A DNA stretch of 64,000 nt. It comes from an uncultured Candidatus Saccharibacteria bacterium (lineage in GTDB: Bacteria; Patescibacteriota; Minisyncoccia; Portnoybacterales; UBA2143). The notes beneath the pieces are model-generated. The model was given only the letters and a program-made list of their open reading frames with translations. It was not told the DNA's origin and made no database searches. The stretch covers positions 74,415-138,414 of the forward strand of contig CAYPQZ010000006.1 of NCBI GenBank assembly GCA_964413015.1, given 5' to 3'. Below are positions 5,008 to 24,334 of the stretch, piece by piece (position 1 is the stretch's first letter; each line of letters starts with the position of its first letter). The position numbers were made by a program, and so were the translations under genes.

Positions 5008-5934
5008 ATGTTAGTTAAATTTTTAATAACCATTTCGGTCATTTTTAATCCGGTATCTTTTCTTGTCGGGCAATTGTCAGCTCCTAAAATTCCAGTTGAT
5101 TTCTCGGGGGCGTCGTTAATCAATTGCGCTTCTATTACAGCGGCATCTTCTCAAAATAATCCTAATTTTTTGCCCATTCGTAATTGGGATATAGCCGAAC
5201 CGGAAACTGAAACCAAAGCGGCTCTAATTTTCAACAAAAACAAGAATAAGATTCTTTATCAAAAAAACATTCATCAGGTCTTGCCAATTGCCAGCTTGAC
5301 TAAATTAATGACTGCCCTGATAGTTTTGGAGAATTTTGAGATTGACAAGGTGGTTTCTATTTCCAAGGAAGCGGTTGCTGGTTACGGCGACCAGGGAGGC
5401 TTGGAAGTTAAAGAAAAACTTTCTATTGGAGACCTGCTTCATGCTTTGTTGATGGAATCCAGTAATGATGCGGCAATTGCTTTGGCGGAAGCCGTTGAAG
5501 AAAAGAAAAGTGTCAATTTTGTTAGCCTAATGAATCAAAAGACGCAGGAATTAGGCCTGAAAAATACTTATTATGCCGACCCCAGCGGGTACGAGCCAAC
5601 GAACGTTTCAACTGCCGAAGAAATTGTCAAGCTGATTGAATACAGCTTTAATTATCCTTTTATCTGGGAGGTTTTTAAGATACCAAGCATCAGGCTATCA
5701 TCAGTTGACGGTTTAACAAATCATTATTGGGTGAATACCGATAAAATGTTAAACCGTTTGCCGGGAGTTATCGGCGGGAAAACCGGCTATACTGATGAAG
5801 CTCAAGGTTGCCTGTTTTTAGTTATTGAACAGAAAAATTCAGGATATTTAATTAGCGTTGTTCTAGGGGCTCAAGAAAGATTTTTAGAAACAGAAAGATT
5901 AATTAATTGGGTTAAAAAAGCATACATTTGGTAA
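5008..5934 (+). CDS. D-alanyl-D-alanine carboxypeptidase (S11, PBP5/6-like)
   Basis: SxxK (ASLTKLMT), SxN (ESSNDA) and KTG (GGKTGYT) motifs, plus an N-terminal signal/anchor. Confidence 0.8.
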   Translation: MLVKFLITISVIFNPVSFLVGQLSAPKIPVDFSGASLINCASITAASSQNNPNFLPIRNWDIAEPETETKAALIFNKNKNKILYQKNIHQVLPIASLTKLMTALIVLENFEIDKVVSISKEAVAGYGDQGGLEVKEKLSIGDLLHALLMESSNDAAIALAEAVEEKKSVNFVSLMNQKTQELGLKNTYYADPSGYEPTNVSTAEEIVKLIEYSFNYPFIWEVFKIPSIRLSSVDGLTNHYWVNTDKMLNRLPGVIGGKTGYTDEAQGCLFLVIEQKNSGYLISVVLGAQERFLETERLINWVKKAYIW

Positions 5935-5996
5935 AAATCAAAAGTCAAATCGATAAAAGACAGTCTTTTAAAGAAACTAATTTTTTAATTTAAAAC

Positions 5997-7043
5997 ATGC
6001 CTGATATTTTTTACGTCTCTCGGATTTTGGGATTAGGGGCAATTTCATTTATTGTCGCTTTGTTATGGACGCCTGCTCTAACCCATTTTCTTGATAAATA
6101 CCGTTTAGGGAAGCAGATTCGCTCTGAAGGAGCGCCTGTTTTTAATAAATTGCATCATAAAAAAGAAGGCACTCCGACTATGGGAGGCATTTTAATATGG
6201 GTGACCGTGCTTTTCCTGACTTTGCTTTTTTGGTGGCTGGGACAGGCAGGAGAAGGGACTATTTTGGAAAAGCTAAATTTTTTAACTCGTCAAGAAACGC
6301 TTTTGCCTCTGGGTGCCTTAGTGGCTTCTGCCATAGTTGGGCTCGGAGACGACTTGCTCGGCATTTTTAGAAAGGGAGCTAAGGCTGGCGGGTTAAAAGT
6401 AAGACATCGCCTTTTGGTATATACGATTCTTGCCGGATTCGGCGCCTGGTGGTTTTTCTGGAAACTGGAATGGGATTTAATCCATGTTCCTTTTGTCGGA
6501 GATTTTAATATCGGCTGGTGGTACATCGTTATTTTTGTTTTCATCCTGGTAGCTACTGCCCATTCGACTAATTTAACTGACGGATTAGACGGATTGGTTG
6601 GAGGAATCCTTTTAATTGCTTTTGCCGCTTTCGGAACAATCGCTTTTTCCCAAGGCAAAATGGATTTAGCCACTTTTTGCGGAGTGATTATTGGCGCCCT
6701 GCTGGCTTTTCTGTGGTTTAATATTTACCCGGCCCGTTTTTTTATGGGTGATACCGGCGCGATGTCTTTGGGAATCACTTTAGGAATTATTGCTATGCTG
6801 ACCAATACCTTTTTGCTGCTCCCTTTTATTGGCTTTATTCTGGTTATTGAATCAGGTTCAGTAATTATCCAGTTTTTTTCTAAGAGAATTAAAGGAAAGA
6901 AAGTTTTCTTATCTGCTCCGATTCACCATCATTTTGAAGCCAGAGGATGGCCGGAAACAAAAGTAACTATGCGTTTTTGGATTATGGGCGGAGTTATGGC
7001 AGTTATCGGCTTAATTTTAGTTTTTATTGAAAAAATTATCTAA
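5997..7043 (+). CDS. mraY: Phospho-N-acetylmuramoyl-pentapeptide transferase
   Basis: 10-TM protein with the NLTDGLDGL motif and the HHHFE motif. Confidence 0.92.
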   Translation: MPDIFYVSRILGLGAISFIVALLWTPALTHFLDKYRLGKQIRSEGAPVFNKLHHKKEGTPTMGGILIWVTVLFLTLLFWWLGQAGEGTILEKLNFLTRQETLLPLGALVASAIVGLGDDLLGIFRKGAKAGGLKVRHRLLVYTILAGFGAWWFFWKLEWDLIHVPFVGDFNIGWWYIVIFVFILVATAHSTNLTDGLDGLVGGILLIAFAAFGTIAFSQGKMDLATFCGVIIGALLAFLWFNIYPARFFMGDTGAMSLGITLGIIAMLTNTFLLLPFIGFILVIESGSVIIQFFSKRIKGKKVFLSAPIHHHFEARGWPETKVTMRFWIMGGVMAVIGLILVFIEKII

Positions 7044-7045
7044 GT

Positions 7046-8449
7046 ATGAAAATTAAAGATTTTAAAGACAAAAAAGTGACTATTATTGGCTTAGGACTGC
7101 ATGGCGGGGGAGTTGGCGCGGCTAAATTTTTCAGCCGGGCCAAAGCCAAAGTCCTGGTCACTGATTTAAAGACTAAAGATGAACTGGCTGAATCAATAGA
7201 AAAATTAAAGAAAGAACCGATTAAATATGTTTTGGGCCAGCACCGGTCAGAGGACTTTATTAATGCTGATTTAATTATCCAGAATCCGGGAGTTAGAGAT
7301 AAATCTAAATATTTGGAAATAGCCAGAGAAAACAATGTTCCGATTGAAACGGATATCGGTATATTTTTCGAGCTTTGTACGGTTCCGATTATCGGCGTTA
7401 CCGGAAGCCGAGGCAAGTCCACAACGAGCGTTTTAATAGCCAGGTTTCTTAAAAGGAGATATTCAGAAGTAATTTTGGCCGGAAATATACGCAGTTCGGC
7501 GCTGTTAAAGTTAAAGAAAATAGATAAAGACACTAAAGTCGTCTTGGAGCTTTCAAGTTGGCAGTTAGCCGGCTTAAAATCGCACAAAAAAAGTCCGGCT
7601 TACGCCGTGTTGACCAATCTCATGCCTGACCATTTAGACAGGTATAAGGATATGGAACAATATATCAGGGACAAAAGAAAAATTTTCCGGTGGCAGAAAT
7701 CAGATAATTATTTAGTCCTTAACTATGACGATAAACAAGTAAGAGAATTTAGCCAGGAAGCAAAGTCGAAAGTGTTCTATTTCAGCCAGAATAATCAATC
7801 GGCATCTGACTTCCAAGGAAGTTTTGTTAAAGACGATAAAATATATTTCAATTCTGAAGAAATCTGTTCTTTGGAGGAAATCCGGTTAAAAGGCAGGCAT
7901 AATCTTAGTAATGTTCTGGCGGCCGTAACGATGGCCAAAATTCATCGGGTGCCCAACAAATCTATCCAAAAAGTTTTAAGCAAATTTGAAGGCCTGGAAG
8001 GCCGTTTGGAGCTAATAGGCGTTGTTAGAGGAATAGAGTATATCAACGATACTACCTCGACTATTCCCGAGGCTTGTCTGGCCGCTTTAAGGACTTTCCC
8101 AAAGCGCAATATTATCCTGATTGCCGGCGGCAATGATAAAAATCTGGAATTTAAAGAGCTTGCCAGAGGGATTGTAAAAAGAGTTAAGGCCGTTATTTTG
8201 CTCAAAGGGAACGCTACTGACAAAATTAAGAAAGCGCTTGATGAAGAATTAAATTTAAATAACCAGTATCTAGAAATAATCGGACCCTTAGACAGCATGG
8301 AAGAAGCCGTTGCCAAAGCAACTGAACAAGCTGAAGAATTTGAAAGAAGCATTGTTTTACTTTCTCCGGCCAGCTCCAGTTTTAGCATGTTCAGGCATGA
8401 ATTTGAAAGAGGCGAGGCCTTTAATAAAGCAGTGTCTTCGTTAAAATGA
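7046..8449 (+). CDS. murD: UDP-N-acetylmuramoylalanine--D-glutamate ligase
   Basis: Mur ligase P-loop GVTGSRGKSTT and an N-terminal Rossmann GLGLHGGG. It lies between mraY and ftsW. Confidence 0.9.
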   Translation: MKIKDFKDKKVTIIGLGLHGGGVGAAKFFSRAKAKVLVTDLKTKDELAESIEKLKKEPIKYVLGQHRSEDFINADLIIQNPGVRDKSKYLEIARENNVPIETDIGIFFELCTVPIIGVTGSRGKSTTSVLIARFLKRRYSEVILAGNIRSSALLKLKKIDKDTKVVLELSSWQLAGLKSHKKSPAYAVLTNLMPDHLDRYKDMEQYIRDKRKIFRWQKSDNYLVLNYDDKQVREFSQEAKSKVFYFSQNNQSASDFQGSFVKDDKIYFNSEEICSLEEIRLKGRHNLSNVLAAVTMAKIHRVPNKSIQKVLSKFEGLEGRLELIGVVRGIEYINDTTSTIPEACLAALRTFPKRNIILIAGGNDKNLEFKELARGIVKRVKAVILLKGNATDKIKKALDEELNLNNQYLEIIGPLDSMEEAVAKATEQAEEFERSIVLLSPASSSFSMFRHEFERGEAFNKAVSSLK

Positions 8450-9558
8450 AGAACCATCAACCTGATTACATTTTTATCCTTGTTGTTTTTGCTTTAATTG
8501 CTTTCGGGTTGATTATACTTTTCAGCGCCTCGTCAGTTATTTCACATGAAAAGCTTAGCCAAAGCAACTATTTCCTAAAGCATCAGCTGTTTTACAGCCT
8601 GCCTTTGGCGTTGATTTTTTTTATTATCTGCCAGAGAATTAATTACCGATACTGGAAAAAAGTGGCTTTTCCTTTAATGGTCGTCTCGCTGATTTTACTG
8701 GCTTTGGTTTTTGTTCCTGGGATAGGCAGTGAAAGCGGAGCCAAAAGATGGATTTACTTAGGATTTTCAGTTCAGCCCTTTGAAGTTGTCAAACTAACTT
8801 TTATTATTTACTTAGCCGCTTTACTAAGCCGACTCCGGAAGGTTTCTGAAGCGAGTAAAGAAGATAACGCCCAAGCCATTAAAGAAAGTTTAGCCCCTTT
8901 TTTATTGGTTGCCGGGATTATCGGTCTGCTGGTTTCTTTCCAGCCTAATATGAGCGCTTTGGTAATGACCTCTTTAATTGCCGGCCTGCTCTACTTTCTT
9001 GCCGGCGCCAGGTTATCTTACTTAGCAGCTCTTTCAGGCTTGGCTTTAGCCGGATTTTTTGTTTTAATTAAAGTAGCTCCTTACAGGATGAAAAGATTGA
9101 CGGTTTTTCTCCATCCGGAATGGGATCCTCAAGGCATTGGTTATCAGATTAATCAGGCGCTTTTGGCTATTGGTTCAGGAGGACTCTTTGGATTGGGCTT
9201 TGGGCATAGTATCCAAAAATGGAAGTATCTTCCCGAAGTTATCGGCGATTCCATTTTTGCCATTGCCGCAGAAGAATTCGGTTTAATTGGCGCCGGCCTG
9301 ATAGTTTCATTTTTTGTTATTTTAGCTTGGCGAGGATTCAAAGTTGCTAAAAATTCTTCTGATAGATTTGGCTATCTTTTAGCCGGGGGAATTACCGGTT
9401 GGCTTTTTTTCCAGGCCATTATTAATATATCGGCTATTTCCGGATTAATCCCTTTAACTGGAATTCCTTTGCCTTTTATAAGTTATGGTGGAACTGCCCT
9501 GGTAATTTCGTCGGTCGGGGCAGGGATTTTGGTTAACATATCAAAATACACTAAGTAA
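8446..9558 (+). CDS. ftsW: SEDS-family peptidoglycan glycosyltransferase FtsW/RodA
   Basis: 10-TM SEDS architecture. It sits in the dcw cluster between murD and murG. Confidence 0.85.
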   Translation: MKNHQPDYIFILVVFALIAFGLIILFSASSVISHEKLSQSNYFLKHQLFYSLPLALIFFIICQRINYRYWKKVAFPLMVVSLILLALVFVPGIGSESGAKRWIYLGFSVQPFEVVKLTFIIYLAALLSRLRKVSEASKEDNAQAIKESLAPFLLVAGIIGLLVSFQPNMSALVMTSLIAGLLYFLAGARLSYLAALSGLALAGFFVLIKVAPYRMKRLTVFLHPEWDPQGIGYQINQALLAIGSGGLFGLGFGHSIQKWKYLPEVIGDSIFAIAAEEFGLIGAGLIVSFFVILAWRGFKVAKNSSDRFGYLLAGGITGWLFFQAIINISAISGLIPLTGIPLPFISYGGTALVISSVGAGILVNISKYTK

Positions 9559-9625
9559 ATTTTAATTTCTAAGTTTTAATTTTATAAATAAATCTTAAAT
9601 CTTAATTTTTAAACATATTGAAAGT

Positions 9626-10771
9626 ATGCGAATCTTATTCACTGGCGGCGGCACGGGAGGACATATTTTTCCCATAATCGCCGTAGCCAGACAATTGAAA
9701 AAAAATTATCAAGAATCAGTTGAGCCGATTGGACCGGGCAGAGAAACTATCTTAGAAATGTTTTTCTTGGGCTCTAACGGGTTCGCTAAAAATCTTTTGG
9801 AAAAAGAAGGAATTGAAGTCAGGATTATTTTATCCGGAAAATTTAGGCGCTATTTTTCGATTTACAATTTCCTAGACATGTTCAAGATTCCCATAGGCAT
9901 TTTGCAGTGTCTTTGGAGTCTCTATTTCCTAATGCCCGATGTTATTTTCAGCAAGGGTGGATATGGCAGCGTCCCGGTAGTACTAGTTGCCTGGCTTTAC
10001 CGAATTCCCGTTTTAACTCACGAGTCGGACGTTTTGCCAGGATTGGCCAATCGCTTAGCGGCTAGGTTGTCAAAAACAATTGCAGTTTCTTTTGCGGCGG
10101 CTAAAAAACATTTTCCTAATAATAAGACCGTTTTAATAGGTAATCCGATCCGTTCAGAAGTTGTCCAAATTTGCCTTTCTTTGGGCAAAGAAAGTAAAGA
10201 AAAAACCAGAAACATCTTTAAGATAATCAGCCAGAAACCAGTTATTTTGATTCTCGGCGGGAGTCAAGGAGCTGAGAAAATAAATGATTTAGTTATCAGC
10301 AGTTTGTTTAAGCTCCTGGAAAAATATGAGGTTATTCATCAGTGCGGAGAGAAAAATTATGATAGCATCATTAAAAAAATGGATCAATTGCCGGTCAGCT
10401 ATCACGTTTATCCTTTTTTAAGCGAAAAGCAAATATCCTTGGCTTATTACTTGTCAGATTTGATTGTTTCTCGGGCCGGAGCAGGCAGTATTTCCGAAAT
10501 TGCCGCCTGCGGCAAGCCAAGCATTCTAATTCCTTTGCCAAAATCGGCTTCCGGGCATCAAAGGGAGAACGCCTTTAACTATGCTAAGACAGGAGCAACG
10601 GTTATCCTGGAACATCTTAATTTAACCCCTCATCTTTTCATTAATGAAATTAATAAAATTCTGGATAATCCAGAATTGTCTCAGAAAATGTCTAATAACG
10701 CTAAAGAATTTTCCCGTCCGGAAGCGGCCCAGGAAATCGCACGGAAAATAGTGGAGATGGGGAGAATATGA
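9626..10771 (+). CDS. murG: Undecaprenyldiphospho-muramoylpentapeptide beta-N-acetylglucosaminyltransferase
   Basis: ILFTGGGTGGHIFP N-terminal motif and the GT28 fold. Confidence 0.9.
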   Translation: MRILFTGGGTGGHIFPIIAVARQLKKNYQESVEPIGPGRETILEMFFLGSNGFAKNLLEKEGIEVRIILSGKFRRYFSIYNFLDMFKIPIGILQCLWSLYFLMPDVIFSKGGYGSVPVVLVAWLYRIPVLTHESDVLPGLANRLAARLSKTIAVSFAAAKKHFPNNKTVLIGNPIRSEVVQICLSLGKESKEKTRNIFKIISQKPVILILGGSQGAEKINDLVISSLFKLLEKYEVIHQCGEKNYDSIIKKMDQLPVSYHVYPFLSEKQISLAYYLSDLIVSRAGAGSISEIAACGKPSILIPLPKSASGHQRENAFNYAKTGATVILEHLNLTPHLFINEINKILDNPELSQKMSNNAKEFSRPEAAQEIARKIVEMGRI

Positions 10772-12147
10772 ATAATAATAAACCAATCAGAGTTAGAATT
10801 GCGCCCAGTCCGACTGGCTTATTTCATATTGGCACGGCCCGGACTACGCTCTTCAATTATTTATTTGCTAAAAAGAACAATGGCAAATTTATTTTACGCA
10901 TTGAAGACACTGACAAAGAAAGATCAGAGGGAAAATACAAAAAAGACATTCTTGATAATCTAAAATGGCTGGGTCTGGAATGGGATGAAGAATACTGCCA
11001 GAGTGAGCGAATAGCTATTTATGAAAAATATCTTAAAAAACTTTTAGATTCCGGACAAGCATTTTATTGTTACCATACTAAAGAAGAACTGGATAAGGAA
11101 AAAAATAAGCAGATGGCTAATAAGGAAGCCCCGCGTCATATTTGCGATGGCCGGGGAGCTTCTTCAAAAGGGATTATTAGATTTAGATGCCCGGATAAGA
11201 AAATTACTTTTAATGATTTAATCAAAGGAGAATTAACGTTTGACGGAAATTTGCTAGGGGATATAAGCATTGCCAAAGATGAAAAAACGCCGCTTTATAA
11301 TTTTGCCGCTTCGGTGGATGACGCTGAAATGAAAATGAGCCATATCATTAGGGGCGAAGACCATATTTCCAATACGCCTAAACAGATTTTTATTCTTGAG
11401 GCGTTGGGATTAGATTGTCCTGAGTATGCTCATCTCCCTTTAACTCTGGGTCCCGATAAGACGAAATTAAGCAAGCGGCATGGAGTTGTTTCGGTAACCC
11501 GATATAGAAAAGAAGGATATTTGCCGGAGGCGCTGGTTAATTTTATAGCTTTTCTTGGTTGGCATCCGGGCAATGAAAAAGAGATTTTTTCTTTGAAAGA
11601 ATTAGAGCGGGAGTTCTCTATAGAAAGAATAAACAAGTCCAATGCAATCTTTAACATCAATAAGCTTGACTGGTATAATGGCCAATATATTCGGAAAATG
11701 GATTTGGATAAATTGACCGAATTATGCTTGCCTTATCTGTCCCAAGAAACTAATTTTGATTATGCTAAAAAAGTTGTTGCTTTAGAACAAGAAAGGTTAA
11801 AAAAGCTTTCTGAAATAGGGGAGTTAACTAAGTTTTTCTTTTTGGACAAGCTGGACTATCCAAAAGAGCTGCTAATTTGGAAGAAAATGACTTTAAAAGA
11901 GGTTAAAAACAACCTTGACATATTAGGTAAAGCATTGTCTAAAATAGATAAATTTGACCAAAATTCGTTTCAAGGTATTCTGATGCCTCTGGCTGAAAAA
12001 CATGGCTCTGGAGAGCTTCTGTGGCCTCTGAGAGTGGCTTTAACAGGCCAAAAGGCCTCTCCTGGTCCCTTTGAAATAATGGAAGTTTTGGGTAAAAAAA
12101 AGGTTCTTAAAAGAATAGAAGAAGCCATGGAATTAATTGAAATTTAA
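10768..12147 (+). CDS. gltX: Glutamyl-tRNA synthetase
   Basis: HIGH motif (PSPTGLFHIGTART) and KMSKS-like KLSKR. It shares an ATGA overlap with murG. Confidence 0.9.
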   Translation: MNNNKPIRVRIAPSPTGLFHIGTARTTLFNYLFAKKNNGKFILRIEDTDKERSEGKYKKDILDNLKWLGLEWDEEYCQSERIAIYEKYLKKLLDSGQAFYCYHTKEELDKEKNKQMANKEAPRHICDGRGASSKGIIRFRCPDKKITFNDLIKGELTFDGNLLGDISIAKDEKTPLYNFAASVDDAEMKMSHIIRGEDHISNTPKQIFILEALGLDCPEYAHLPLTLGPDKTKLSKRHGVVSVTRYRKEGYLPEALVNFIAFLGWHPGNEKEIFSLKELEREFSIERINKSNAIFNINKLDWYNGQYIRKMDLDKLTELCLPYLSQETNFDYAKKVVALEQERLKKLSEIGELTKFFFLDKLDYPKELLIWKKMTLKEVKNNLDILGKALSKIDKFDQNSFQGILMPLAEKHGSGELLWPLRVALTGQKASPGPFEIMEVLGKKKVLKRIEEAMELIEI

Positions 12148-12278: not shown

Positions 12279-13559
12279 ATGAAATTCAGAATATATAAAT
12301 TTTTTTTAGTTATTTTTTTACTTTTCCCCTTAATAACTCAAGGCGGCTTGATTGATGATATTAATAAACAAATTGAAGAGCAAGAAGTCAAAAGAGCTGA
12401 ACTGGAAAGACAAGCTGCTGAATACCAGCAGGTGATTGAACAAAAAAAAGGAGAAATAAAGAGCTTGAGCAACCAAATCGCTATTTTTAACGCTCGGATA
12501 AATAAACTGCAGGTGGAAATAAATATTACTAAAGATGATATTGACCAAACAGAAATGGAAATCATATCTTTAGAATATGGCATAGTTCAGGCAGATAAGG
12601 ATATTCTTGAACAGAAAGATAATTTAGGAACGGTTATCCAGGCAATTGCCGAATTTGACCAGACCAGCCAGATGGAAATGATTTTATTCAGCGATGATTT
12701 TTCTGATTTTTTTAATCAATTGACCTATTTAGACAACCTTCAGAATGGAGTCAAGGAAAAGGTTGAAAGCTTGAGAGCGTTAAAACAATTGTTAAGCAAG
12801 GATAAAGAAAGCAAGGAAGAGAAGAAAGAACATTTACAAGGGCTAAAAGAGCAATTGGACAGCCAGAAATGGTCTTTAGCCAGTCAAAGAAGCTCCAAAG
12901 AAATTCTTTTGAACCAGACCCGAGGAGAGGAAGGCAAATATCAGCAGATGCTGGCTAATATTGAGGCGCAGAAGAAATCATTGTTGGGCGACATTAACCG
13001 GTTGCGCCAACAAAAAGCGGATGAATTGGCCCGTCTGGAGGAGCTTCAGGAGAAGCCGCCTTCAGGTTTCTGGGCCTCTTTGAGTTGGTACTATCGCCAG
13101 GACGATTCTCGGTGGACAGACACAACTATCGGTATCAGCGATTCCCAATTGGGGGATTACGGCTGCGCTATCAGCTCGGTGGCTATGATTTTTACTTATC
13201 ACGGAGAAACGATTACTCCAAAACAATTGGCTAAGGAGTCAATCTATTATTCCAGCCTGATTATTTGGCCAGACCGATGGGGAAGCCTGCGCAAAGTTTT
13301 AGGAACTTACCGAACGGCAGTTGACTGGTTCAGGATTGACCGGGAGCTGGGAGCCGGTTATCCGGTAATCGTCCGGGTTCAGGCGGACGGATACAGCGGA
13401 GCGCATTATGTAGTCGTCCATCATAAAACGGATGATGGCAGATATGTAGTCCATGACCCTTTATTCGGGGCAAATATATATTTATCTTCCAGCCGCGCCT
13501 TTATTGGCGAACTTTACGACACCAGTACCAGCATTAACCAAATGATTGTTTATCATTAA
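12279..13559 (+). CDS. PcsB/EnvC-like coiled-coil protein with C-terminal Peptidase_C39-like/CHAP-like cysteine peptidase domain
   Basis: Signal peptide and a ~230-aa coiled coil. The C-terminal domain has catalytic Cys in GCAISSVAMIF and His in GAHYVVVHH. The N-terminal domain is homologous to that of ORF 45582..46889 (shared FSDFFNQL(T/S)xL(D/E)N(L/V)Q). Confidence 0.6.
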   Translation: MKFRIYKFFLVIFLLFPLITQGGLIDDINKQIEEQEVKRAELERQAAEYQQVIEQKKGEIKSLSNQIAIFNARINKLQVEINITKDDIDQTEMEIISLEYGIVQADKDILEQKDNLGTVIQAIAEFDQTSQMEMILFSDDFSDFFNQLTYLDNLQNGVKEKVESLRALKQLLSKDKESKEEKKEHLQGLKEQLDSQKWSLASQRSSKEILLNQTRGEEGKYQQMLANIEAQKKSLLGDINRLRQQKADELARLEELQEKPPSGFWASLSWYYRQDDSRWTDTTIGISDSQLGDYGCAISSVAMIFTYHGETITPKQLAKESIYYSSLIIWPDRWGSLRKVLGTYRTAVDWFRIDRELGAGYPVIVRVQADGYSGAHYVVVHHKTDDGRYVVHDPLFGANIYLSSSRAFIGELYDTSTSINQMIVYH

Positions 13560-14250
13560 ATCTATGAAAGCGAATCCGGGGAAAAAATTAGTCCTTCAGA
13601 TAAACGGAGAAAAATACGCCCGCTATCCGATTAAGACTGAATTAATTACTCCGAATGACAGAAATTTCCCAAAAGTAATCAAAAAATACCTTGAGGGCAA
13701 ACTTAGAGCGGGGGATATTGTCTTTGTTGGCGAGAAGATTATTGCAATTATGCAGGGGAGAGCTTATCCGGTTAGCGAGATAAAGCCGAGTCCGATGGCT
13801 GCGTGGTTAAGCCGAAAAGTTTACAGGAATCCGGCCGGAATCGGTTTGGCATCTCCGGAAACAATGCAGTTAGCGATTGAGGAAATAGGGCTTTGGCGGA
13901 TTCTTCTGGCAGGTCTGGCCGCTTTAATAACCAAGCCGTTTGGAATTAGGGGAATTTTCTATCTGATTGCCGGCGAAAAAGCGCGCGGTATAGACGGTCC
14001 GGTCTCTTACGCAATTCCTCCTTACAATACTTACGCCAGCAAGATTCCTAAGAAGCCCGGGCAAGCGGCTGAACAAATCAGCCAGAAGATTAATTCGCCG
14101 GTGGCGATTGTTGACGCCAATGATTTAGGCGTCCGGATTCTTGGCGCCAGCCAGGGAATTGACAAAAAACTTTTACTCAAGGCCTTAAAAGACAATCCTT
14201 TGGGGCAGACAGATGAATCAACTCCAATTGGCGTTTTAAGAAAATTATGA
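13546..14250 (+). CDS. CofE-like (F420-0:gamma-glutamyl ligase family) domain protein, function unknown
   Basis: Weak pattern-level resemblance to the F420_ligase/CofE family. Translationally coupled by a 14-bp overlap to the upstream gene. Confidence 0.3.
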   Translation: MFIIKSMKANPGKKLVLQINGEKYARYPIKTELITPNDRNFPKVIKKYLEGKLRAGDIVFVGEKIIAIMQGRAYPVSEIKPSPMAAWLSRKVYRNPAGIGLASPETMQLAIEEIGLWRILLAGLAALITKPFGIRGIFYLIAGEKARGIDGPVSYAIPPYNTYASKIPKKPGQAAEQISQKINSPVAIVDANDLGVRILGASQGIDKKLLLKALKDNPLGQTDESTPIGVLRKL

Positions 14251-17344: not shown

Positions 17345-17617
17345 ATGAGTAAAACAAAATCGGCCGGATCAACTTCGCTCGGCCGTGATTCTCAACCAAA
17401 ATATCTTGGAGTCAAGTTATTTGGCGGTCAGCTGACCCAACCAGGCAGCATTATTGTTCGCCAACGAGGCACCAGGTTTTTGCCAGGCAAGAACGTCCGC
17501 CGGGGCAAAGACGACACCCTTTACGCTATAACTAAAGGAGTTGTTAAGTTTATTACCAAAAAAATTAAGCGCTTTGACGGTTCTCACAGAACCGCCAAAA
17601 TAGTTAATGTGGAATAA
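17345..17617 (+). CDS. rpmA: 50S ribosomal protein L27
   Basis: [19 protein letters not shown]...GKDDTLYA is the L27 signature. Confidence 0.9.
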
Positions 17618-17645
17618 ATAATTAAAAAGAATCTGAAGTAAGAAA

Positions 17646-17675
17646 AAAAGACCCCAAACGGGTCTTTTTTTTTAT
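17646..17675. terminator. Bidirectional rho-independent terminator
   Basis: aaagaccccaaacgggtcttttttttt lies between convergent rpmA and rplI. Confidence 0.7.
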
Positions 17676-17678
17676 TCC

Positions 17679-18182
17679 CTACTCTTCTTTTATTTCTTTT
17701 CTAGCGGGTTCTGCTTCTTCGATGACAATAATCTTGATTTTGGCTTCTAAATTATGAGGAAATTCCACCGTGGTTTCGTACTCTCCCAACTCTTTAATCG
17801 GCGCGTCTATTTTAATCTGTTCTTTTTTTATCTCAAAATTTTCCGGCAGGCCTTCAATAAAAGATATATTTTCTTTTAATTTTCCGGCAATTTGACCGGC
17901 GCCAACCGTTCCGAAAAGACCACCTTCTTTATTTGTCTTAACTGGTATTTCTATCTCCAGGCCATCTATCTGGCTGGCTATTTTCTGGAAAAGCCCCAGT
18001 TCTTTTTCGGCTTTTCCGGCGTCAATTCTTTCCTGCTCTTTTATTTTACTGATTTCCGATTTAGTTGCCAAAACAGCTATCTGTTTGGGAATCAAAAAGT
18101 TGCGGCCGTACCCGTCAGCCACTTTTTTAACTTCTCCTTTTTTCCCTAAATTTTCCAAGTCTTTAAGTAAAACTACTTGCAT
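17679..18182 (-). CDS. rplI: 50S ribosomal protein L9
   Basis: MQVVLLKDLENLGKKGEVKKVADGYGRNFLIPK. The start is taken at the internal Met of the track ORF. Confidence 0.85.
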   Translation of the reverse strand: MQVVLLKDLENLGKKGEVKKVADGYGRNFLIPKQIAVLATKSEISKIKEQERIDAGKAEKELGLFQKIASQIDGLEIEIPVKTNKEGGLFGTVGAGQIAGKLKENISFIEGLPENFEIKKEQIKIDAPIKELGEYETTVEFPHNLEAKIKIIVIEEAEPARKEIKEE

Positions 18183-18192
18183 ATTGGTAATC

Positions 18193-18468
18193 TTAATATT
18201 TAATAATAAAATTTTCAAATCGGCCGGTTGCTTTTTGCCATTTAATATCTATTTTATCAACCTTAGCTAGGATAGGTCCATTATAACACCATTCAATGAA
18301 TTGATTCAAGTCCTCTTCTTTGCCTTCGGCAACTATCTTAACCGTTCCGTCGTCCTGATTGCTGACCCAGCCGGTTAAACCTATTTTTTTAGCTTGTCTT
18401 CTGGTTGAGTCTCGAAAAAGCACACCCTGAACCCGTCCGTAAGCTTTAAGAGTTAATCTTTTATCCAT
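18193..18468 (-). CDS. acyP: Acylphosphatase
   Basis: VQGVLFR...GWV.N..DGTV motifs in a 91-aa protein. Confidence 0.8.
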   Translation of the reverse strand: MDKRLTLKAYGRVQGVLFRDSTRRQAKKIGLTGWVSNQDDGTVKIVAEGKEEDLNQFIEWCYNGPILAKVDKIDIKWQKATGRFENFIIKY

Positions 18469-19694
18469 TATTTTAACAATTCTACCGCTCTATCTAATTG
18501 GGGGTCGCGCATCTCATCAATGTCTTCTAAAGTCAGTTCCACTTCTTCATCTGGGACTATCCCCTCTTCGTTAATATCGGTTCCAGCCGGAGTCAGCCAT
18601 TTAGCCACTGTGATTTTAGCGCTAGAACCATTCCTTAATTTTTCAAGTTGCTGAACAGAGCCCTTACCAAAGCTGGTTTGCCCTACAATCTTTATCCCTT
18701 TAACATCCCTTAGGGCGCCGGCTAAAATTTCTGAAGCTGAAGCCGAACCTTCATTAATTAAAACAACTGTTGGCATATCTTCTAAGTAGCCATATCCCCG
18801 ACTGCGATGTTCGTTTTTATGGCTGTTGCCGTAATCTTCGGTGACCACCAGTTCTCCTTTATGAAGGAACCAACTGGATATGTCAACCGCTGCTTCCAAA
18901 TATCCTCCAGGGTTGTTACGAACATCTAAAATAATCCCTTTAGGGCTTTCTTGTAAGGCTTGCTGAATAGTTTCAGCAAATTGTTCAGTTGAGTTTTCAG
19001 TGAAATGATAGAATTGAATATAGGCAAGCCATTCATTATTTTTACCCAGCTCAATTTTTTCCATTTTAATAATGGGAATCTGGACAACGTCTCTGATAAT
19101 GGTAATTTCTTTAGCTTCAGCCCATTCGTCTCTGGCAACCAGCAGAGAGACTTCGGTTCCTCCCTCTCCTCTGATGAGCTCAACAGCCTGATCAAGTGTT
19201 AAATCAGCTGTCAAAGTGTCATTCACTTTTAATATTTTGTCTCCTGCTTTGATTCCGGCCTTCTTAGCCGGATTTCCTTCCAAGGGAGAAATGACTGTTA
19301 AAACTCCTTTGCGGATGCCGATTTCAGCGCCAATTCCTTCAAAACTTCCGCTCATGTCATCAAGAAAACGTTTGCTTGTATCCGGTTCCATGAAAATCGT
19401 ATAGGGATCGTCCAATGATTCAAATAATCCTTTAATTGCTCCATAAATCATTTCTTGATAATTAAGCGAAAGCCGATCGACATGTTTTTTCTCAAGAATG
19501 CGCCAGGCGTCCCAGAATAAACTGAAATCAGCTTCAGTCGGCTGTCCAACCTCTTTGTTGCTTAGTCTTTCAATTTTATCAATAGACGGCTGGTTAATCT
19601 GTCCAACAAAAAAACCAAAGCCGAAGACAATCAAAATAAGGATGGCCCAAGTTGGAATAAAAATATACTTTTTTATGTTCATGCTTTTCGCCAT
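18468..19694 (-). CDS. ctpA: Carboxyl-terminal processing protease (S41, CtpA-like)
   Basis: PDZ domain, RNNPGGYL and GSASASE motifs. The start is ATG 19694 or 19682 (an ATGA overlap with the upstream GT2); the track ORF starts at TTG 19700. Confidence 0.85.
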   Translation of the reverse strand: MAKSMNIKKYIFIPTWAILILIVFGFGFFVGQINQPSIDKIERLSNKEVGQPTEADFSLFWDAWRILEKKHVDRLSLNYQEMIYGAIKGLFESLDDPYTIFMEPDTSKRFLDDMSGSFEGIGAEIGIRKGVLTVISPLEGNPAKKAGIKAGDKILKVNDTLTADLTLDQAVELIRGEGGTEVSLLVARDEWAEAKEITIIRDVVQIPIIKMEKIELGKNNEWLAYIQFYHFTENSTEQFAETIQQALQESPKGIILDVRNNPGGYLEAAVDISSWFLHKGELVVTEDYGNSHKNEHRSRGYGYLEDMPTVVLINEGSASASEILAGALRDVKGIKIVGQTSFGKGSVQQLEKLRNGSSAKITVAKWLTPAGTDINEEGIVPDEEVELTLEDIDEMRDPQLDRAVELLK

Positions 19695-20467
19695 TTCCAA
19701 AAATACTTTATAGCGCTAATAATATGTATTCGGGTATATTTATTAAATAAAACATCTAAAGAACCTCCGAATTTCTTACTGATTCTGTAATAATAATGGA
19801 ACATTTTTGCTTTAGGCAGGCAAAAAATCTGATATCCTTTTTCCCAAAAGCGCCGGCACCAATCAGTATCTTCCAAGTACATAAAAAACCTTTCATCTAA
19901 CAGTCCGACTTTTTCCAGGGCTTGCCGGCGGATAAGCATAGACGATCCTTGCATCCAATCAACCGATTTTGGCTCCATTGAATCGCCGTTTTCCATTAAA
20001 AAATCGTTGAGTTTTCTTTTTCCCCAAGTTAATCTTTTTAAAAAAGTACGCCGGGCCAAGATTGCTCCAATGCTGGGAAAACGGAAACAAGAATGCTGGG
20101 GCTGATTGGCAAAAGTCATTAATTGCGGTCCGACAATTCCAGCCTGATTATTTTTCTCCATGAATTCAATTAACTGCTGGACAGAATTTTCAGTAATTAG
20201 GACATCGGCGTTAAGGATTAAAATATATTCTCCTTGCGAATTCTTAATCCCCGCATTAACAATTTTAGCATAGCCGACGTTTTTTGGGAAAGGAATAAGT
20301 TTGGCGCTGGGAAATTCTTCGTTAATCAGATTACTTATTAAGGGCTCTGACTGGCTATCAGCAATAATTACTTCATATTCAACAAGGCCAAGATTATCTC
20401 TAATTGATCTGAGGCAAAGCTTTAGCAGAATTGGGGTTCGGTGGTGAGTTATGATTATAGAAAGCAT
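19679..20467 (-). CDS. Glycosyltransferase family 2
   Basis: GT2 N-terminal fold with DxD-type motifs. About 260 aa. Confidence 0.7.
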   Translation of the reverse strand: MLSIIITHHRTPILLKLCLRSIRDNLGLVEYEVIIADSQSEPLISNLINEEFPSAKLIPFPKNVGYAKIVNAGIKNSQGEYILILNADVLITENSVQQLIEFMEKNNQAGIVGPQLMTFANQPQHSCFRFPSIGAILARRTFLKRLTWGKRKLNDFLMENGDSMEPKSVDWMQGSSMLIRRQALEKVGLLDERFFMYLEDTDWCRRFWEKGYQIFCLPKAKMFHYYYRISKKFGGSLDVLFNKYTRIHIISAIKYFWKWRKA

Positions 20468-20470
20468 TAT

Positions 20471-21502
20471 TTACAAGTCAAATATATTTTTACACGCATC
20501 TTGGATTTTTTCAAAATTGTCTTCTATTGGCAATAAAACGTATTCTTTGTTAATAAAAGTGTAATAAAGTAGTCCTCCGGGGGAAATATCAAAAATTCTC
20601 GTTTGGATGTTATCAATATCTAATTTCAAAGTTAGGCTAACAAGATTTTTAATCTCTCCCAGAGAAGCATCTGTCCTGAAGTGCTTGCCTAAAATATCCA
20701 GAAAATTATATATCTTAACCGGATTAGTCAACATCCCTAAAGAAAGGGCTTTTTCCTTAAGAGCTATTAAAACTTGCTGTTGACGGGACATCCGGTCAAA
20801 ATCATCGGTTGAATATCGGGAACGGACGTAATATAATGCAGTTTGCCCGTCTAGATAATTTTCTCCCTGTGATAAATGGAAAACCCATCTTTCTTCTCCG
20901 TCAATTTCTTTGATAAACCAATTCTCACTCTCTTCCCATCCCTCTTTGGACCATTGGAAGTTTTCCTCAAAAGGTGTGTTCAGATAGATAGAAATTCCGC
21001 CTAAAACGTCAACGGTTTTCTTAAGCGCTTCAAAATCAACTGCTACCGCGTAATCAATGTATAAATCAGTTATATAGGAAATTGTTTTTTTGGCGCATTC
21101 CAATCCTCCTTGGGCATAGGCAAAGTTAATTTTCTTTTTTTCTTCTAAGCACCAAAGACGGGCATAAAGGTCGCGAGGCAACGAAATCAAGGCGACCCGG
21201 CTGTCGCTTTTTCTGACGCTGAATAGGATTATTGCGTCGGAAAGAAGCTTCCCTTCTCCTGGATCATCAGGGCCCCTGATGCCTAAAAGAAGGATATTCA
21301 AGCGGTTATTATCTTTTTCCGGGAGGTCGGGCAGGTCTTCAGCAAGAGGCAAATTTTGGTTCGGGATATCTCTTTGGCCAATAACTTTACTAATCGTAAA
21401 ACCGGTCTTGAGGAAGAAAAGCGAAAATAGCCCGATTAAAAAAAGAGCTGTAATAAATATCCATAATTTTCTTTTCTTTTTCGGTTGAAATTCCTCTTCC
21501 AT
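20471..21502 (-). CDS. LytR-CpsA-Psr (LCP) family cell-wall polymer transferase
   Basis: N-terminal TM. LLLGIRGPDD...SDAIILFSV...LISLPRDLY is the LCP signature. Confidence 0.8.
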   Translation of the reverse strand: MEEEFQPKKKRKLWIFITALFLIGLFSLFFLKTGFTISKVIGQRDIPNQNLPLAEDLPDLPEKDNNRLNILLLGIRGPDDPGEGKLLSDAIILFSVRKSDSRVALISLPRDLYARLWCLEEKKKINFAYAQGGLECAKKTISYITDLYIDYAVAVDFEALKKTVDVLGGISIYLNTPFEENFQWSKEGWEESENWFIKEIDGEERWVFHLSQGENYLDGQTALYYVRSRYSTDDFDRMSRQQQVLIALKEKALSLGMLTNPVKIYNFLDILGKHFRTDASLGEIKNLVSLTLKLDIDNIQTRIFDISPGGLLYYTFINKEYVLLPIEDNFEKIQDACKNIFDL

Positions 21503-21506
21503 ATTT

Positions 21507-21742
21507 TTATTTAAGGATTGTCATTGAGGATTACGTCTCTTCGCCTTTGGCGAAGGGCGTGTCCGCCTGCCCGCCTCTGGAGGGAAAGGACGACTCCTTA
21601 AATTTTGACAAGGATAAACTGATAAGAACAGTCTTTAAAATGACGCCCTTGTGCTCAAGGGACATCATTTTAAGGACTGGCCTTATCATCATCTGTTCTT
21701 ATCGTATGACAATTCTTAAATTTTTAAAAGTCGACTGTTCTT
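21507..21742. repeat. Family-A modular repeat, full-length copy (L-module ... R hairpin)
   Basis: tttaaggattgtcattgaggattacgtc ... ccgcctctggagggaaaggacgactccttaaattttgacaagg ... ataagaacagtctttaaaatgacgcccttgtgctcaagggacatcattttaaggactggcctt. Confidence 0.85.
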
Positions 21743-22785
21743 TGCCCTTGCTTAAACCACCTTGACATTTCCTGAACACTTGCTTTCTTGTTAGCCATAA
21801 TTATTTTTCTCTTTTGCCAGGCCTTAGGCGTTTGTTTAAATAAATCTTTTATGGCTTTCCAAGTGAATCTCTCAAAAAGCAGAACGTAAAACCAAGAAGC
21901 TGTCTCTTTAATTAAAAACCAGGGCAAATGCTTTATTAAAATCCAAGCCTGCTCATTTTTAATCTGCATTAGACGTTGATTTTTAAATGCCAAATATTTG
22001 GCAAATTTGCCTATTTTTATCCTTTCTCGGATTATGGCTAAGTAATTTATAGAAGCGTTTTCTCCGGAACTTCTGTCATGCCAGGCAATTGATTTTGGCT
22101 GATAAATAATTTTCCATCCGTAAAGACGCATTCGCCAAGACAAATCAACATCTTCCTTGTACATAAAAAAATCTTCATCAAAATATTCTCCATTTATTTT
22201 AACATTCTCCAGAGCGGTTTTTCGGTAAAGCGGCGCTGCTCCGTCTGCCCCAAAGACTTTTGTTTTTTCTTCAAATTGACCTTCATCAATTTCTCCCTGC
22301 CCTCGGTTGATAATCCGCCTGTTTTTTAAAATGGCTAATCCGGCGCTATCAATAATATAAAAAATTTCCTGGTTTTTAACGTATCCCAAAGACGAATTAC
22401 CTAAGTTCCAACGAAGCAATTTTCCTTGAACCGCGCCTATCCGATTATCCTTTTCAAGAGCTTCTACCGCTTTTTTAACGAAATGCCTGTCTAAAAAAAC
22501 ATCTTGAGTGAGGCATAAAACATATTTCCCTCGACTAATTCTTATTCCCTGATTCTGGCCTCCGGCATATCCTAAATTCTTCTTGTTAAAAACTATTTTC
22601 AAGTCCGGTCGGTTTTCCTTGGCTAATTTCTCCAGATAGTTTTTTGATTCTCCAATAGAATTATTGTCAATAATAAGGATTTCTAAATCAGGGTATTCTT
22701 GGCTGAAAACCGAATTCAAACATTTATCAAGATATTTTTCTCCATTATGAGTCAGGAGATTTATTGAAACTAATGGGCGAAGCAT
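21724..22785 (-). CDS. Glycosyltransferase family 2
   Basis: INLLTHNGEKYLDKCLNSV...IIDNNS is a GT2 signature. The stop codon lies inside the repeat end. Confidence 0.7.
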   Translation of the reverse strand: MLRPLVSINLLTHNGEKYLDKCLNSVFSQEYPDLEILIIDNNSIGESKNYLEKLAKENRPDLKIVFNKKNLGYAGGQNQGIRISRGKYVLCLTQDVFLDRHFVKKAVEALEKDNRIGAVQGKLLRWNLGNSSLGYVKNQEIFYIIDSAGLAILKNRRIINRGQGEIDEGQFEEKTKVFGADGAAPLYRKTALENVKINGEYFDEDFFMYKEDVDLSWRMRLYGWKIIYQPKSIAWHDRSSGENASINYLAIIRERIKIGKFAKYLAFKNQRLMQIKNEQAWILIKHLPWFLIKETASWFYVLLFERFTWKAIKDLFKQTPKAWQKRKIIMANKKASVQEMSRWFKQGQRTVDF

Positions 22786-24334
22786 AGAGGAGGCCTATAA
22801 TAGCTACAAAAAATAAAAAAACCTTGTCATTAAAAAGCACTACATCAAATAAACTATAGCTAAAAATCCAGACTAAAGCAAGGACTAAAAACCCTGTCCA
22901 GCAGGATGACTTTTGTTTCCAGGCCTCTTTTAAAATCTGCCAGAAAATAACGGTTAGAACAATTAGCGCAAAAATGCCCATTTCAGCGGCAATATCTAGA
23001 TATAAGCTGTGGGCCGAGGAGCCTTTTTTAGCAAAAGATACATCTTCGTTAAGAACTAAAGAGTAGTTGCCGATGCCGACTCCCAATAAAGGTTTCATAA
23101 TTATTGAATCAGCTGTCCTCTGCCAAATTTCCAATCGGCTTTTAACCGATATTTCCAAAAAATCAATCATGCTTCGGGCTCTTTCAAAAAAGGACATATC
23201 AGCCATAGCATCTCTGCCCAGCTCAAGATACTGCGGCGCGAAAAGAATTGCCGAAGCGATTGGCATTAAAAGAAAGAAAATTACCAAAGAGCCAATAATC
23301 AGCTGGGTTTGGCGCCGGCGTTCTTGATTAAATCCGGCAGTAAAAAACGTTGTTCGGGAACGAATAGACGGAGACCAGTAAAAGAAAATGATGAATAAAT
23401 AGGCCGAGAGCGAAATTAAAGCGCTGGCCCAGGCTCCTCTTGAGCCAGAAAAGATTATTGCTGACAAACAGCTAATTAACAAAAGGTAGAAAATGATTGC
23501 TTTCTTCTTGTTCCCCCTAGGCCGCTTGAAAACAGCTGTTAGGATAAAGGGCAAACTTAAAATGCAGAAGAAAGCGAAGGAATGCGAATCAGGAAAAACA
23601 GAAAACATTCTTAAGGTGGGCAGTTGATATGAATAATAGGAAAACCAAGTGTTGGTGTATGATAAAAGATTGCTTAACTCTTGTCCGTAAAATACGTTAA
23701 TTACGTTTCTGTCCCAGAGGTACCAAAATTGGTGGAGGTTGATAAAAAATACCATAGCCAACTGCAAAAAACCGACTCCCAAGGTTATCCCTATAGCTGT
23801 CTTCAAAGCGCTAATAATTTTAGAAATAACTTTTTTGTTTCGGTAGGCCAGATTTCTAATAATAATGAACAAGAAAAGAATATTTACGATAAAGAGGATT
23901 TTCTTGATTCCAATGAATAAATTATCCGCGGCAATAAGAGATATAACTCCAATTAGAAAAAAAATTCCCGTTAAATATTCCATTTGGGAATGCCTGAATT
24001 TTTCTTTAATTTTCCATTTACCGAAACGGCCTTTAGTCAATTTGATTGATAAACCATGCTTAAAAAAAATGACCAAAAGAAGGACAGTTAACAAAATCCG
24101 CCAATTGGCCATTGAGTCAAAACTTTCCGTGATTGGTAAAGCGACAAATAAGGGAATTGAAGCAATAAAAACCCATAGGGAATCTTCCACCTTGCTGAAA
24201 ATAAAGTAAAAAACCATCAGGCCGGTTAAAAACAAACTGGCTTCCAAGGGCGCAACCTTAAAGACCATTAAAAAAATAACCGCTATCTCGGTTAGCAGAA
24301 TGATAAGATTTTTGCTATTTTCTTTTAGGCTCAT
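22745..24334 (-). CDS. O-antigen ligase/polymerase (Wzy/WaaL-like) polytopic membrane protein
   Basis: More than 10 TM helices and the GSRGAWASALISL motif of O-antigen-ligase-type proteins. Confidence 0.55.
   Translation of the reverse strand: MSLKENSKNLIILLTEIAVIFLMVFKVAPLEASLFLTGLMVFYFIFSKVEDSLWVFIASIPLFVALPITESFDSMANWRILLTVLLLVIFFKHGLSIKLTKGRFGKWKIKEKFRHSQMEYLTGIFFLIGVISLIAADNLFIGIKKILFIVNILFLFIIIRNLAYRNKKVISKIISALKTAIGITLGVGFLQLAMVFFINLHQFWYLWDRNVINVFYGQELSNLLSYTNTWFSYYSYQLPTLRMFSVFPDSHSFAFFCILSLPFILTAVFKRPRGNKKKAIIFYLLLISCLSAIIFSGSRGAWASALISLSAYLFIIFFYWSPSIRSRTTFFTAGFNQERRRQTQLIIGSLVIFFLLMPIASAILFAPQYLELGRDAMADMSFFERARSMIDFLEISVKSRLEIWQRTADSIIMKPLLGVGIGNYSLVLNEDVSFAKKGSSAHSLYLDIAAEMGIFALIVLTVIFWQILKEAWKQKSSCWTGFLVLALVWIFSYSLFDVVLFNDKVFLFFVAIIGLLYASPISFNKSPDS

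Follow-up and report, generated by a model that had tools for sequence, protein, structure and literature searches.

We identified, in a 64-kb stretch of DNA (64,000 nucleotides of contig CAYPQZ010000006.1; the window, below), two genes whose products are paralogues in their N-terminal coiled-coil domain and carry different catalytic modules at their C-termini. The first, A (open reading frame (ORF) 12279..13559, + strand), encodes 426 amino acids (a.a.) with, according to the ORF and its Pfam matches, a signal or anchor segment, a coiled-coil hairpin and a papain-like cysteine peptidase domain of the C39_2 family. The second, B (ORF 45582..46889, - strand), encodes 435 a.a. with a signal peptide, a coiled-coil hairpin and an SLT_2 (MltB/Slt35-type) lytic transglycosylase domain. 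Both proteins have a hydrophobic segment at the N-terminus. They are probably exported peptidoglycan hydrolases of an ultra-small, uncultivated Parcubacteria-group Patescibacterium, built on the plan of PcsB, CwlO and EnvC; and the reading that we favor, with somewhat better than even confidence, is that such hydrolases dock through the tip of the coiled coil to FtsX and are activated by FtsEX at the division site.

Homology and taxonomic range of A and B

BLASTP aligns A with B in a single collinear block (A 17-238, B 25-249; 33% identity over 228 a.a., E = 2e-28). As a control for composition, B was shuffled 500 times with each residue kept at its own heptad position, and the local alignment was rescored: the A-B score is 283, compared with 85 +/- 11 for the shuffled sequences (z = 17), and the alignment still reaches z = 11.5 when the tip motif is cut out. 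The N-terminal domains of A and B are therefore homologous, and their similarity is not an artefact of composition. The segments containing FSDFF are FSDFFNQLTYLDNLQ in A (a.a. 141-155) and FSDFFNQLSALENVQ in B (a.a. 146-160); the strings DYGCAISSV and GAHYVVV are found in A, and LEAESRLG and QFMPTTW in B. The initial annotation had proposed two ORFs at these positions and on these strands with a homologous coiled-coil N-terminus, a near-identical FSDFF segment and these C-terminal strings, and all of this holds.

A is 100% identical to the NCBI protein AVO34_02125 and has 189 homologues; B is 100% identical to AVO34_02325 and has 1095 homologues. In two protein searches, all the homologues of A and B with a named source were from Patescibacteria (e.g. 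Parcubacteria group and Portnoybacteria) or an unclassified bacterium. B is present in 79 GTDB species representatives, including Yanofskybacteria, Azambacteria and Paceibacterota, and the record titles of these 79 loci name Candidate Phyla Radiation/Patescibacteria or unclassified bacteria, except one labelled Gammaproteobacteria (L076; locus labels of this form are ours). The initial annotation had drawn its comparison with PcsB from Firmicutes; the homologues with a named source point to a Patescibacterium, not a Firmicute. The NCBI record that holds both AVO34_02125 and AVO34_02325 is titled "Firmicutes bacterium ML8_F2", a label that looks wrong given the Patescibacteria homologues.

Catalytic domains

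The C-terminal domain of A (a.a. 287-426; 13137..13556, + strand) matches Peptidase_C39_2 (PF13529) with E = 1.3e-11 and 45.7 bits, where the cut-off is 24, and also matches Peptidase_C39. Residues C296 (13164-13166), H376 (13404-13406) and D393 (13455-13457) are all invariant in an alignment of 59 A-family sequences. The fold is papain-like, a Cys/His pair is present and the PF13529 score exceeds the cut-off, which makes the domain C39-like. The Pfam CHAP model (PF05257) gives no match to A at E <= 1; genuine coiled-coil-CHAP relatives match it at E = 1e-17 and are separate from A. Out of the earlier description of the peptidase as C39_2/CHAP-like, the C39_2 part can thus be kept and the CHAP part dropped. 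Judging from its sequence, A is most likely an enzyme that cleaves peptide stems or cross-links by means of a C39-like Cys/His/Asp peptidase, both the activity and the bond specificity being predictions. The pseudomurein endoisopeptidases PeiR and PeiW and the C39 bacteriocin-processing peptidases share 14-23% identity with A and have no coiled-coil N-terminus, and their substrates are different (archaeal pseudomurein and double-glycine leader peptides, respectively).

The C-terminal domain of B (a.a. 257-435; 45585..46121, - strand) matches SLT_2 (PF13406) at E = 8.6e-9 and with 35.5 bits, the cut-off being 24.3, with the profile only partly covered (positions 67-210 of 292), and matches the NCBIfam MltB models weakly. 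Its putative catalytic residue E278 (46056-46058) aligns with the Glu of ETRWG in Escherichia coli Slt35 (ESRLG in B), which we take to be Glu162, and is invariant across 57 B-family sequences; the AMGxxQFMP motif is also retained. Foldseek matched this domain to SltB1 (4anr, E = 4.3e-4), Slt35 (1d0k, E = 9.8e-4) and SltB3 (E = 5.6e-3). B therefore resembles MltB/Slt35 and SltB1 in its SLT_2 match, catalytic Glu, AMGxxQFMP motif and fold, and most likely cuts glycan strands as a predicted family-3 lytic transglycosylase. The MltB/Slt35 enzymes known so far come from Gram-negative bacteria, as lipoproteins or as soluble periplasmic proteins, and are not known to have a coiled coil of the FtsEX type. 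The proposal that the catalytic modules were swapped with their catalytic residues intact is borne out, as C296, H376 and D393 in A and E278 in B are invariant.

Coiled-coil hairpin and its conserved tip

AlphaFold2 models, with a mean predicted local distance difference test score of 85.5 for A and 81.7 for B, predict that each coiled coil is an antiparallel hairpin of ~230 residues, in which a long helix, a seven-residue linker helix and another long helix follow each other. In A the domain spans a.a. 23-258 (12345..13052, + strand), with helices at 23-128 and 141-255 and the linker helix at 131-137; in B it spans a.a. 31-256 (46122..46799, - strand), with helices at 33-132 and 146-264 and the linker helix at 136-142.

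Identity between the A and B families averages 0.27 along the coiled coil and has two peaks. One lies at the tip of the hairpin and has the pattern YDQxSxLExIL....FSDFF (A 126-145, B 131-150). The tip motif as we delimit it, a putative FtsX-binding site, is FDQTSQMEMILFSDDFSDFFNQLTY in A (a.a. 126-150; 12654..12728, + strand), supported by the conservation peak, the Pfam model CC_PcsB and hhalign, and YDQYTLLEMALRNDKFSDFFNQLSA in B (a.a. 131-155; 46425..46499, - strand), supported by cross-family conservation and CC_PcsB. The other peak, with a smoothed identity of 0.64, has the pattern LLxxTKGEExxYQQ (A 210-223, B 215-228); the corresponding motif is KEILLNQTRGEEGKYQQM in A (a.a. 207-224; 12897..12950, + strand), where the smoothed cross-family identity is highest, and KEDLLEQTKGEEYRFQQL in B (a.a. 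212-229; 46203..46256, - strand), where it was likewise delimited by cross-family conservation. Both motifs are present in the consensus of coiled-coil relatives that carry an M23 peptidase domain, and the second one in CHAP relatives too. This second motif is more conserved between the families than the tip, has a Gly in the middle of a helix and is ~80 residues away from the tip, where it may serve as a hinge or as another site of contact.

Similarity of the coiled coil to that of known FtsEX partners was found with family-level comparisons. CC_PcsB (PF24568, 75 positions) matches 43 out of 57 B-family and 25 out of 59 A-family members, always at the hairpin tip (~104-179) and over the full profile, with 24-28 bits around a cut-off of 27 bits. 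The top PDB match of the A-family profile is EnvC (8hd0_E, E = 3.4e-5; collinear, 34-248 against 33-246), the B-family profile matches Vibrio cholerae EnvC (8tzk_E, E = 0.002), and hhalign places the tip of the joint coiled-coil alignment on residues 112-202 of E. coli EnvC (E = 1.7e-4, probability 49%). The proposed PcsB/EnvC type of the coiled coil is in line with these matches. In EnvC, the linker has a helix of six residues and is flanked by the FtsX-binding sites 114-128 and 141-160 (PMC7668044); because the range aligned by hhalign includes both sites, the tip is likely to be the FtsX docking site, and the FSDFF tip is the part of A and B that would most likely contact a shared partner.

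ftsEX operons in Patescibacteria

We scanned metagenome contigs with an alignment of Patescibacteria FtsX proteins and collected 48 loci; a further locus, L090, is counted in addition. The ORF directly after ftsE-ftsX matches the hidden Markov model (HMM) of the A/B coiled coil in 21 of the 48 ftsX loci, plus L090. The first coiled-coil gene after ftsX encodes an M23 domain in nine loci, a CHAP domain in seven (eight with L090) and an A-like C39 domain in three (L102, L107 and L108), and it is cut by the contig end in two. In L090, for example, the gene order is prfB, ftsE, ftsX (with FtsX_ECD and FtsX domains), coiled-coil-CHAP, ctpA, L9 and L27. Some loci have tandem sets of such genes after ftsX: M23 and C39 in L095; CHAP, C39 and M23 in L104; and M23 twice in L096, L100 and L111. 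In 12 of the ftsX loci, the coiled-coil genes are followed by a gene for a CtpA-type protease, which is usual after tandem sets. The full length of A can be aligned with the ORF that adjoins ftsX in L107 (31% identity over 410 a.a., E = 9e-43).

Control of A by FtsEX is well supported by inference, because full-length homologues of A lie inside ftsEX operons. Control of B by FtsEX is plausible, because of the shared coiled coil and conserved tip only. The tandem M23, CHAP and C39-like genes after ftsE-ftsX lend support, at the level of gene order, to the idea that several hydrolases could be under one activator. The shared-activator toolkit that the initial annotation had put forward for A and B thus has a counterpart in relatives, where coiled-coil hydrolases with different catalytic domains follow ftsE-ftsX in tandem; its B side has none, since B-type genes were never found beside ftsEX.

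For the FtsX of the source genome, a protein search with the FtsX of L090 returned WWE3-like relatives only. The Parcubacteria group does have FtsX: KKS37540.1 (L126, "Parcubacteria group bacterium") has FtsX_ECD and FtsX domains and is encoded in the order ftsE-ftsX-pyrG. ftsEX has also been reported for other Patescibacteria in published genome analyses.

In eight loci (L119, L120, L122, L123, L124, L126, L127 and L135), the gene directly after ftsE-ftsX is pyrG (CTP synthase) and not a hydrolase gene; at least one of these ftsE-ftsX-pyrG loci, L126, belongs to the Parcubacteria group. In this lineage the hydrolase genes have apparently been relocated away from ftsEX. In model species, pcsB, cwlO and envC are unlinked to ftsEX.

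Two ATP-binding cassette (ABC) gene pairs upstream of B homologues, in L046 and L063, were considered as ftsEX candidates and rejected, as they are of the MacB type (MacB_PCD plus FtsX permease).

Proposed mechanism and its alternatives

In the mechanism that we propose, the conserved hairpin tip (YDQxSxLExIL....FSDFF) would dock between two FtsX extracellular domains, and ATP binding and hydrolysis by FtsE would alter the coiled coil so that the catalytic domain is released or activated at the division site. A would then cut peptides, and B would cut glycan strands. Release of the catalytic domain by FtsEX has been proposed for EnvC, PcsB and RipC (PMC11627006, PMC7668044). On this model, FtsEX would be encoded in the source genome, FtsX would bind both A and B, and either enzyme may be autoinhibited. 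We put forward with more reserve, as a possibility somewhat short of even, that a single Parcubacteria FtsEX drives interchangeable coiled-coil enzymes, among them a fused lytic transglycosylase and a C39-like peptidase that replaced an ancestral M23 domain.

Several results weigh against control of A and B by FtsEX, or against the assignment of their coiled coils to this class. To our knowledge, no C39_2-type enzyme has been described as a peptidoglycan hydrolase. Visual inspection, a Walker-A scan, phmmer searches using the E. coli proteins FtsE and FtsX, and an HMM made from 120 FtsX sequences of Patescibacteria found no ftsE or ftsX in the window, and neither gene is present in the 10 kb on either side, which were covered through look-ups of proteins near the two ends; the check for these genes that had been suggested came out negative for this region. 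A B-type gene adjoins ftsEX in none of the 79 genome loci and in none of the 22 loci where a coiled-coil gene follows ftsX, and no SLT_2 version of the coiled-coil gene was found in the examined ftsEX operons. With no ftsEX in the window and its 10-kb flanks, and no B-type gene beside ftsEX, shared activation stays conjectural for B. A and B themselves give no match to CC_PcsB at E <= 1, single-sequence PDB searches with them return weak matches only, and the profiles match EnvC weakly, at E = 3e-5 to 0.1 and with a probability of 49% in hhalign. The predicted template modelling scores of the A and B models (0.47-0.49) mean that the arrangement of the domains, and hence any autoinhibition, is not reliably predicted. 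In fold searches with the coiled coil, SMC and other generic hairpins score at least as well as EnvC and PcsB, and searches with the full-length models are dominated by generic coiled coils (SMC, Tc toxins and dynein). Since fold searches cannot tell this coiled coil from SMC-like hairpins, the assignment to the PcsB/CwlO/EnvC class rests on sequence.

The main alternative, which we consider less likely, which carries most weight for B and which may apply to B alone, is that the coiled coil acts without FtsEX, as an autoinhibitory, spacer or oligomerisation module under the control of another partner or of proteolysis (e.g. by the nearby CtpA-type protease). A precedent for control of a coiled-coil hydrolase independent of FtsEX is RipA with SteAB in Corynebacteriales (PMC9897464). 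Such control would suit the genomic context of B, which has a conserved locus of its own with the gene of ribosomal protein L25 and is not linked to ftsEX at any examined locus; it would also suit the Parcubacteria-type loci, where pyrG instead of a hydrolase gene follows ftsE-ftsX, and the conservation of a CtpA-type S41 protease near coiled-coil hydrolase genes. The pattern of conservation, however, speaks for docking to FtsX: the coiled-coil segment most conserved among A, B and those M23, CHAP and C39 proteins that are encoded beside ftsEX is the tip, which is the FtsX-binding part in EnvC, and not the part of the coiled coil near the catalytic domain. For A, moreover, there are three lineages in which the gene of a similar protein directly follows ftsX.

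It is improbable that A and B, instead of acting in division, serve an epibiotic way of life as secreted weapons or tools, either to breach the wall of a host bacterium or to open the organism's own wall for pili or secretion systems. Immunity-like genes were not noticed beside A or B, and the surroundings are of a housekeeping kind, with no genes for pili or secretion nearby: gltX and, in the window, an mraY-murD-ftsW-murG block precede A, the L25 gene precedes B, the L25-B arrangement, at least, is kept among divergent relatives, and close coiled-coil relatives belong to ftsEX operons. These contexts have to be set against the inferred host-dependent epibiont lifestyle of Patescibacteria, the reported frequent service of lytic transglycosylases in secretion systems and the resemblance, in fold searches, of the catalytic domain of A to papain-like toxin domains (CdiA-CT, 9l5u) besides C39 peptidases. 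Finally, a merely convergent coiled-coil resemblance between the N-termini of otherwise unrelated proteins is extremely improbable in view of the single collinear alignment, the z-scores of 17 and, without the tip, 11.5 against heptad-preserving shuffles and the shared FSDFF and TKGEE motifs, which are not heptad-like, even though coiled coils are known to give false homology (Mistry et al. 2013) and many generic coiled-coil Pfam families match A and B weakly.

If activation by FtsEX holds for B, a switch for peptide-bond cleavage would also govern the cleavage of glycan strands, the first case of ABC-type mechanotransmission gating such cleavage; if it holds for A, C39_2 would be a new class of peptidoglycan hydrolase, and a wall-cleaving role is suggested for this poorly understood family. 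Patescibacteria would then show how one coiled-coil 'plug' allows the catalytic 'tool' (M23, CHAP, C39-like or SLT_2) to be swapped. A and B would be concrete, testable division proteins for a huge, largely uncultivated lineage with reduced genomes, and the FSDFF tip and the TKGEE..YQ motif are candidate targets for mutagenesis.

A modular coiled-coil family

A profile of the coiled coil only was searched against 1.84 billion cluster representatives, of which 6754 match at E <= 1e-3, 349 of these with E <= 1e-30. Among the 115 nearest full-length matches, 77 carry an M23 domain, 22 SLT_2, eight C39_2 and three CHAP; where members of the nearest coiled-coil relatives are named by organism, they are Patescibacteria or unclassified bacteria. 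The consensus of the M23 relatives retains the metal-binding motifs HxxxD and HxH. The domain swap between A and B is thus one case of a four-way exchange (M23, CHAP, C39_2 and SLT_2) on one coiled coil.

More than 1000 coiled-coil-SLT_2 proteins are found in databases, with precomputed CC_PcsB and SLT_2 domains, and their automatic names are "lytic murein transglycosylase" or "CwlO-like protein". We found no description of a coiled-coil-transglycosylase fusion in the searched literature, full-text searches included. The initial annotation had called this architecture undescribed, which agrees with the searched literature and has to be qualified by the >1000 database members: the fusion is common in databases and undescribed in the literature that we searched, and the central functional claim made for it here is inferential.

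Several known systems can be compared with A and B. PcsB of Streptococcus pneumoniae, CwlO of Bacillus subtilis and RipC of Mycobacterium tuberculosis share with them a signal peptide, a two-helix antiparallel coiled coil and a C-terminal hydrolase domain; the CC_PcsB model matches the tip of many A- and B-family members, and the genes of A-like, CHAP and M23 relatives come directly after ftsE-ftsX. The catalytic domains differ: CHAP or NlpC/P60 in the known proteins, C39_2-like in A and SLT_2 in B, and B would cleave glycan strands whereas the known ones cleave peptides. A 2024 FEBS Letters review describes the PcsB/CwlO/RipC class as direct FtsEX partners, names as partners of FtsEX only EnvC, PcsB, CwlO and RipC (and RipA), and mentions lytic transglycosylases only as indirect clients through DipM (PMC11627006). 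The known direct partners cut peptide bonds or regulate their cutting (CHAP, NlpC/P60 and LytM activators of amidases). EnvC (of E. coli, V. cholerae and Pseudomonas aeruginosa) is like A and B in that it has a coiled coil (bound to FtsX in EnvC) with a short linker helix and a tip region that can be aligned; its LytM domain, however, is catalytically dead and activates separate amidases, whereas A and B, which retain their catalytic residues, would act directly. The Caulobacter DipM/LdpF-SdpA/SdpB system (PMC10336132) is like B in that a division-associated regulatory module acts on lytic transglycosylases, and differs from it in that regulator and transglycosylase are two proteins there and a single polypeptide in B.

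Gene neighborhoods of A and B

Upstream of A there is a block of cell-wall synthesis genes (5008..12147, + strand; Pfam assignments) for an S11 D-Ala-D-Ala carboxypeptidase, followed by mraY, murD, ftsW, murG and gltX. The adjacency of gltX and A recurs in L085, whose A relative is 43% identical; in L088 and L089 a coiled-coil-M23 gene is found after gltX instead of A. The coiled coil of A shares 35-39% identity with those of the M23 type, which equals its identity with distant C39-type coiled coils and is closer than that with the SLT_2 type. Given the shared position after gltX and the M23-like coiled coil, A appears to have arisen by in-place replacement of an ancestral M23 domain by a C39-like domain, and B appears to be an older paralogue at a separate location.

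A second group of genes lies 3.8 kb from A (17345..19700): the gene for ribosomal protein L27 is on the + strand, and those for L9, acylphosphatase and a CtpA-type S41 protease (the latter assigned by Pfam) are on the - strand. This group is a remnant of the ftsEX/coiled-coil hydrolase/ctpA/L9/L27 neighborhood that is found elsewhere. The presence of CtpA-type genes after coiled-coil hydrolases in most of the examined ftsEX operons with such genes hints at proteolytic control. Envelope genes are found on the - strand between 18468 and 24334 (18468..24334): they encode the CtpA-type S41 protease (with a PDZ domain), a GT2 glycosyltransferase, a LytR-CpsA-Psr ligase, a second GT2 glycosyltransferase and a Wzy_C O-antigen-ligase-like protein. 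At its 3' end, A overlaps by 14 bases with a gene similar to F420-0:gamma-glutamyl ligase (PF01996, E = 1.1e-9; 13546..14250, + strand), and a PF01996-type gene also follows A in the distant relative L085 (11300-12007), an odd conserved partner for a wall hydrolase.

Directly upstream of B is the gene for ribosomal protein L25 (46895..47644, - strand), a conserved partner of B-type genes: an L25 homologue is found at most 10 kb from B in 38 of the 79 genome loci, and L25 is directly before B in the divergent loci L092, L093 and L094. A release-factor-like gene (PCRF/RF-1) is convergent to B-type genes in many loci (L049, L053, L057, L058, L071, L072 and L092-L094); in the gene calls of L092-L094 it encodes 242-245 a.a., compared with 365 a.a. 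for the prfB of L090.

ORFs of 420 a.a. after B in L046 and L063 were considered as A-like genes and rejected, as they are not A-like. The one in L046 (11290-12549, + strand), directly after the B homologue, has an SLT domain (PF01464, E = 6e-5) and no detectable coiled coil of the A/B type, and its product may be a further transglycosylase paralogue. In another Patescibacteria contig (L091), a Cas12a (Cpf1)-Cas4-Cas1-Cas2 locus (18103-21254, - strand) is found ~7 kb downstream of a coiled-coil-M23 gene.

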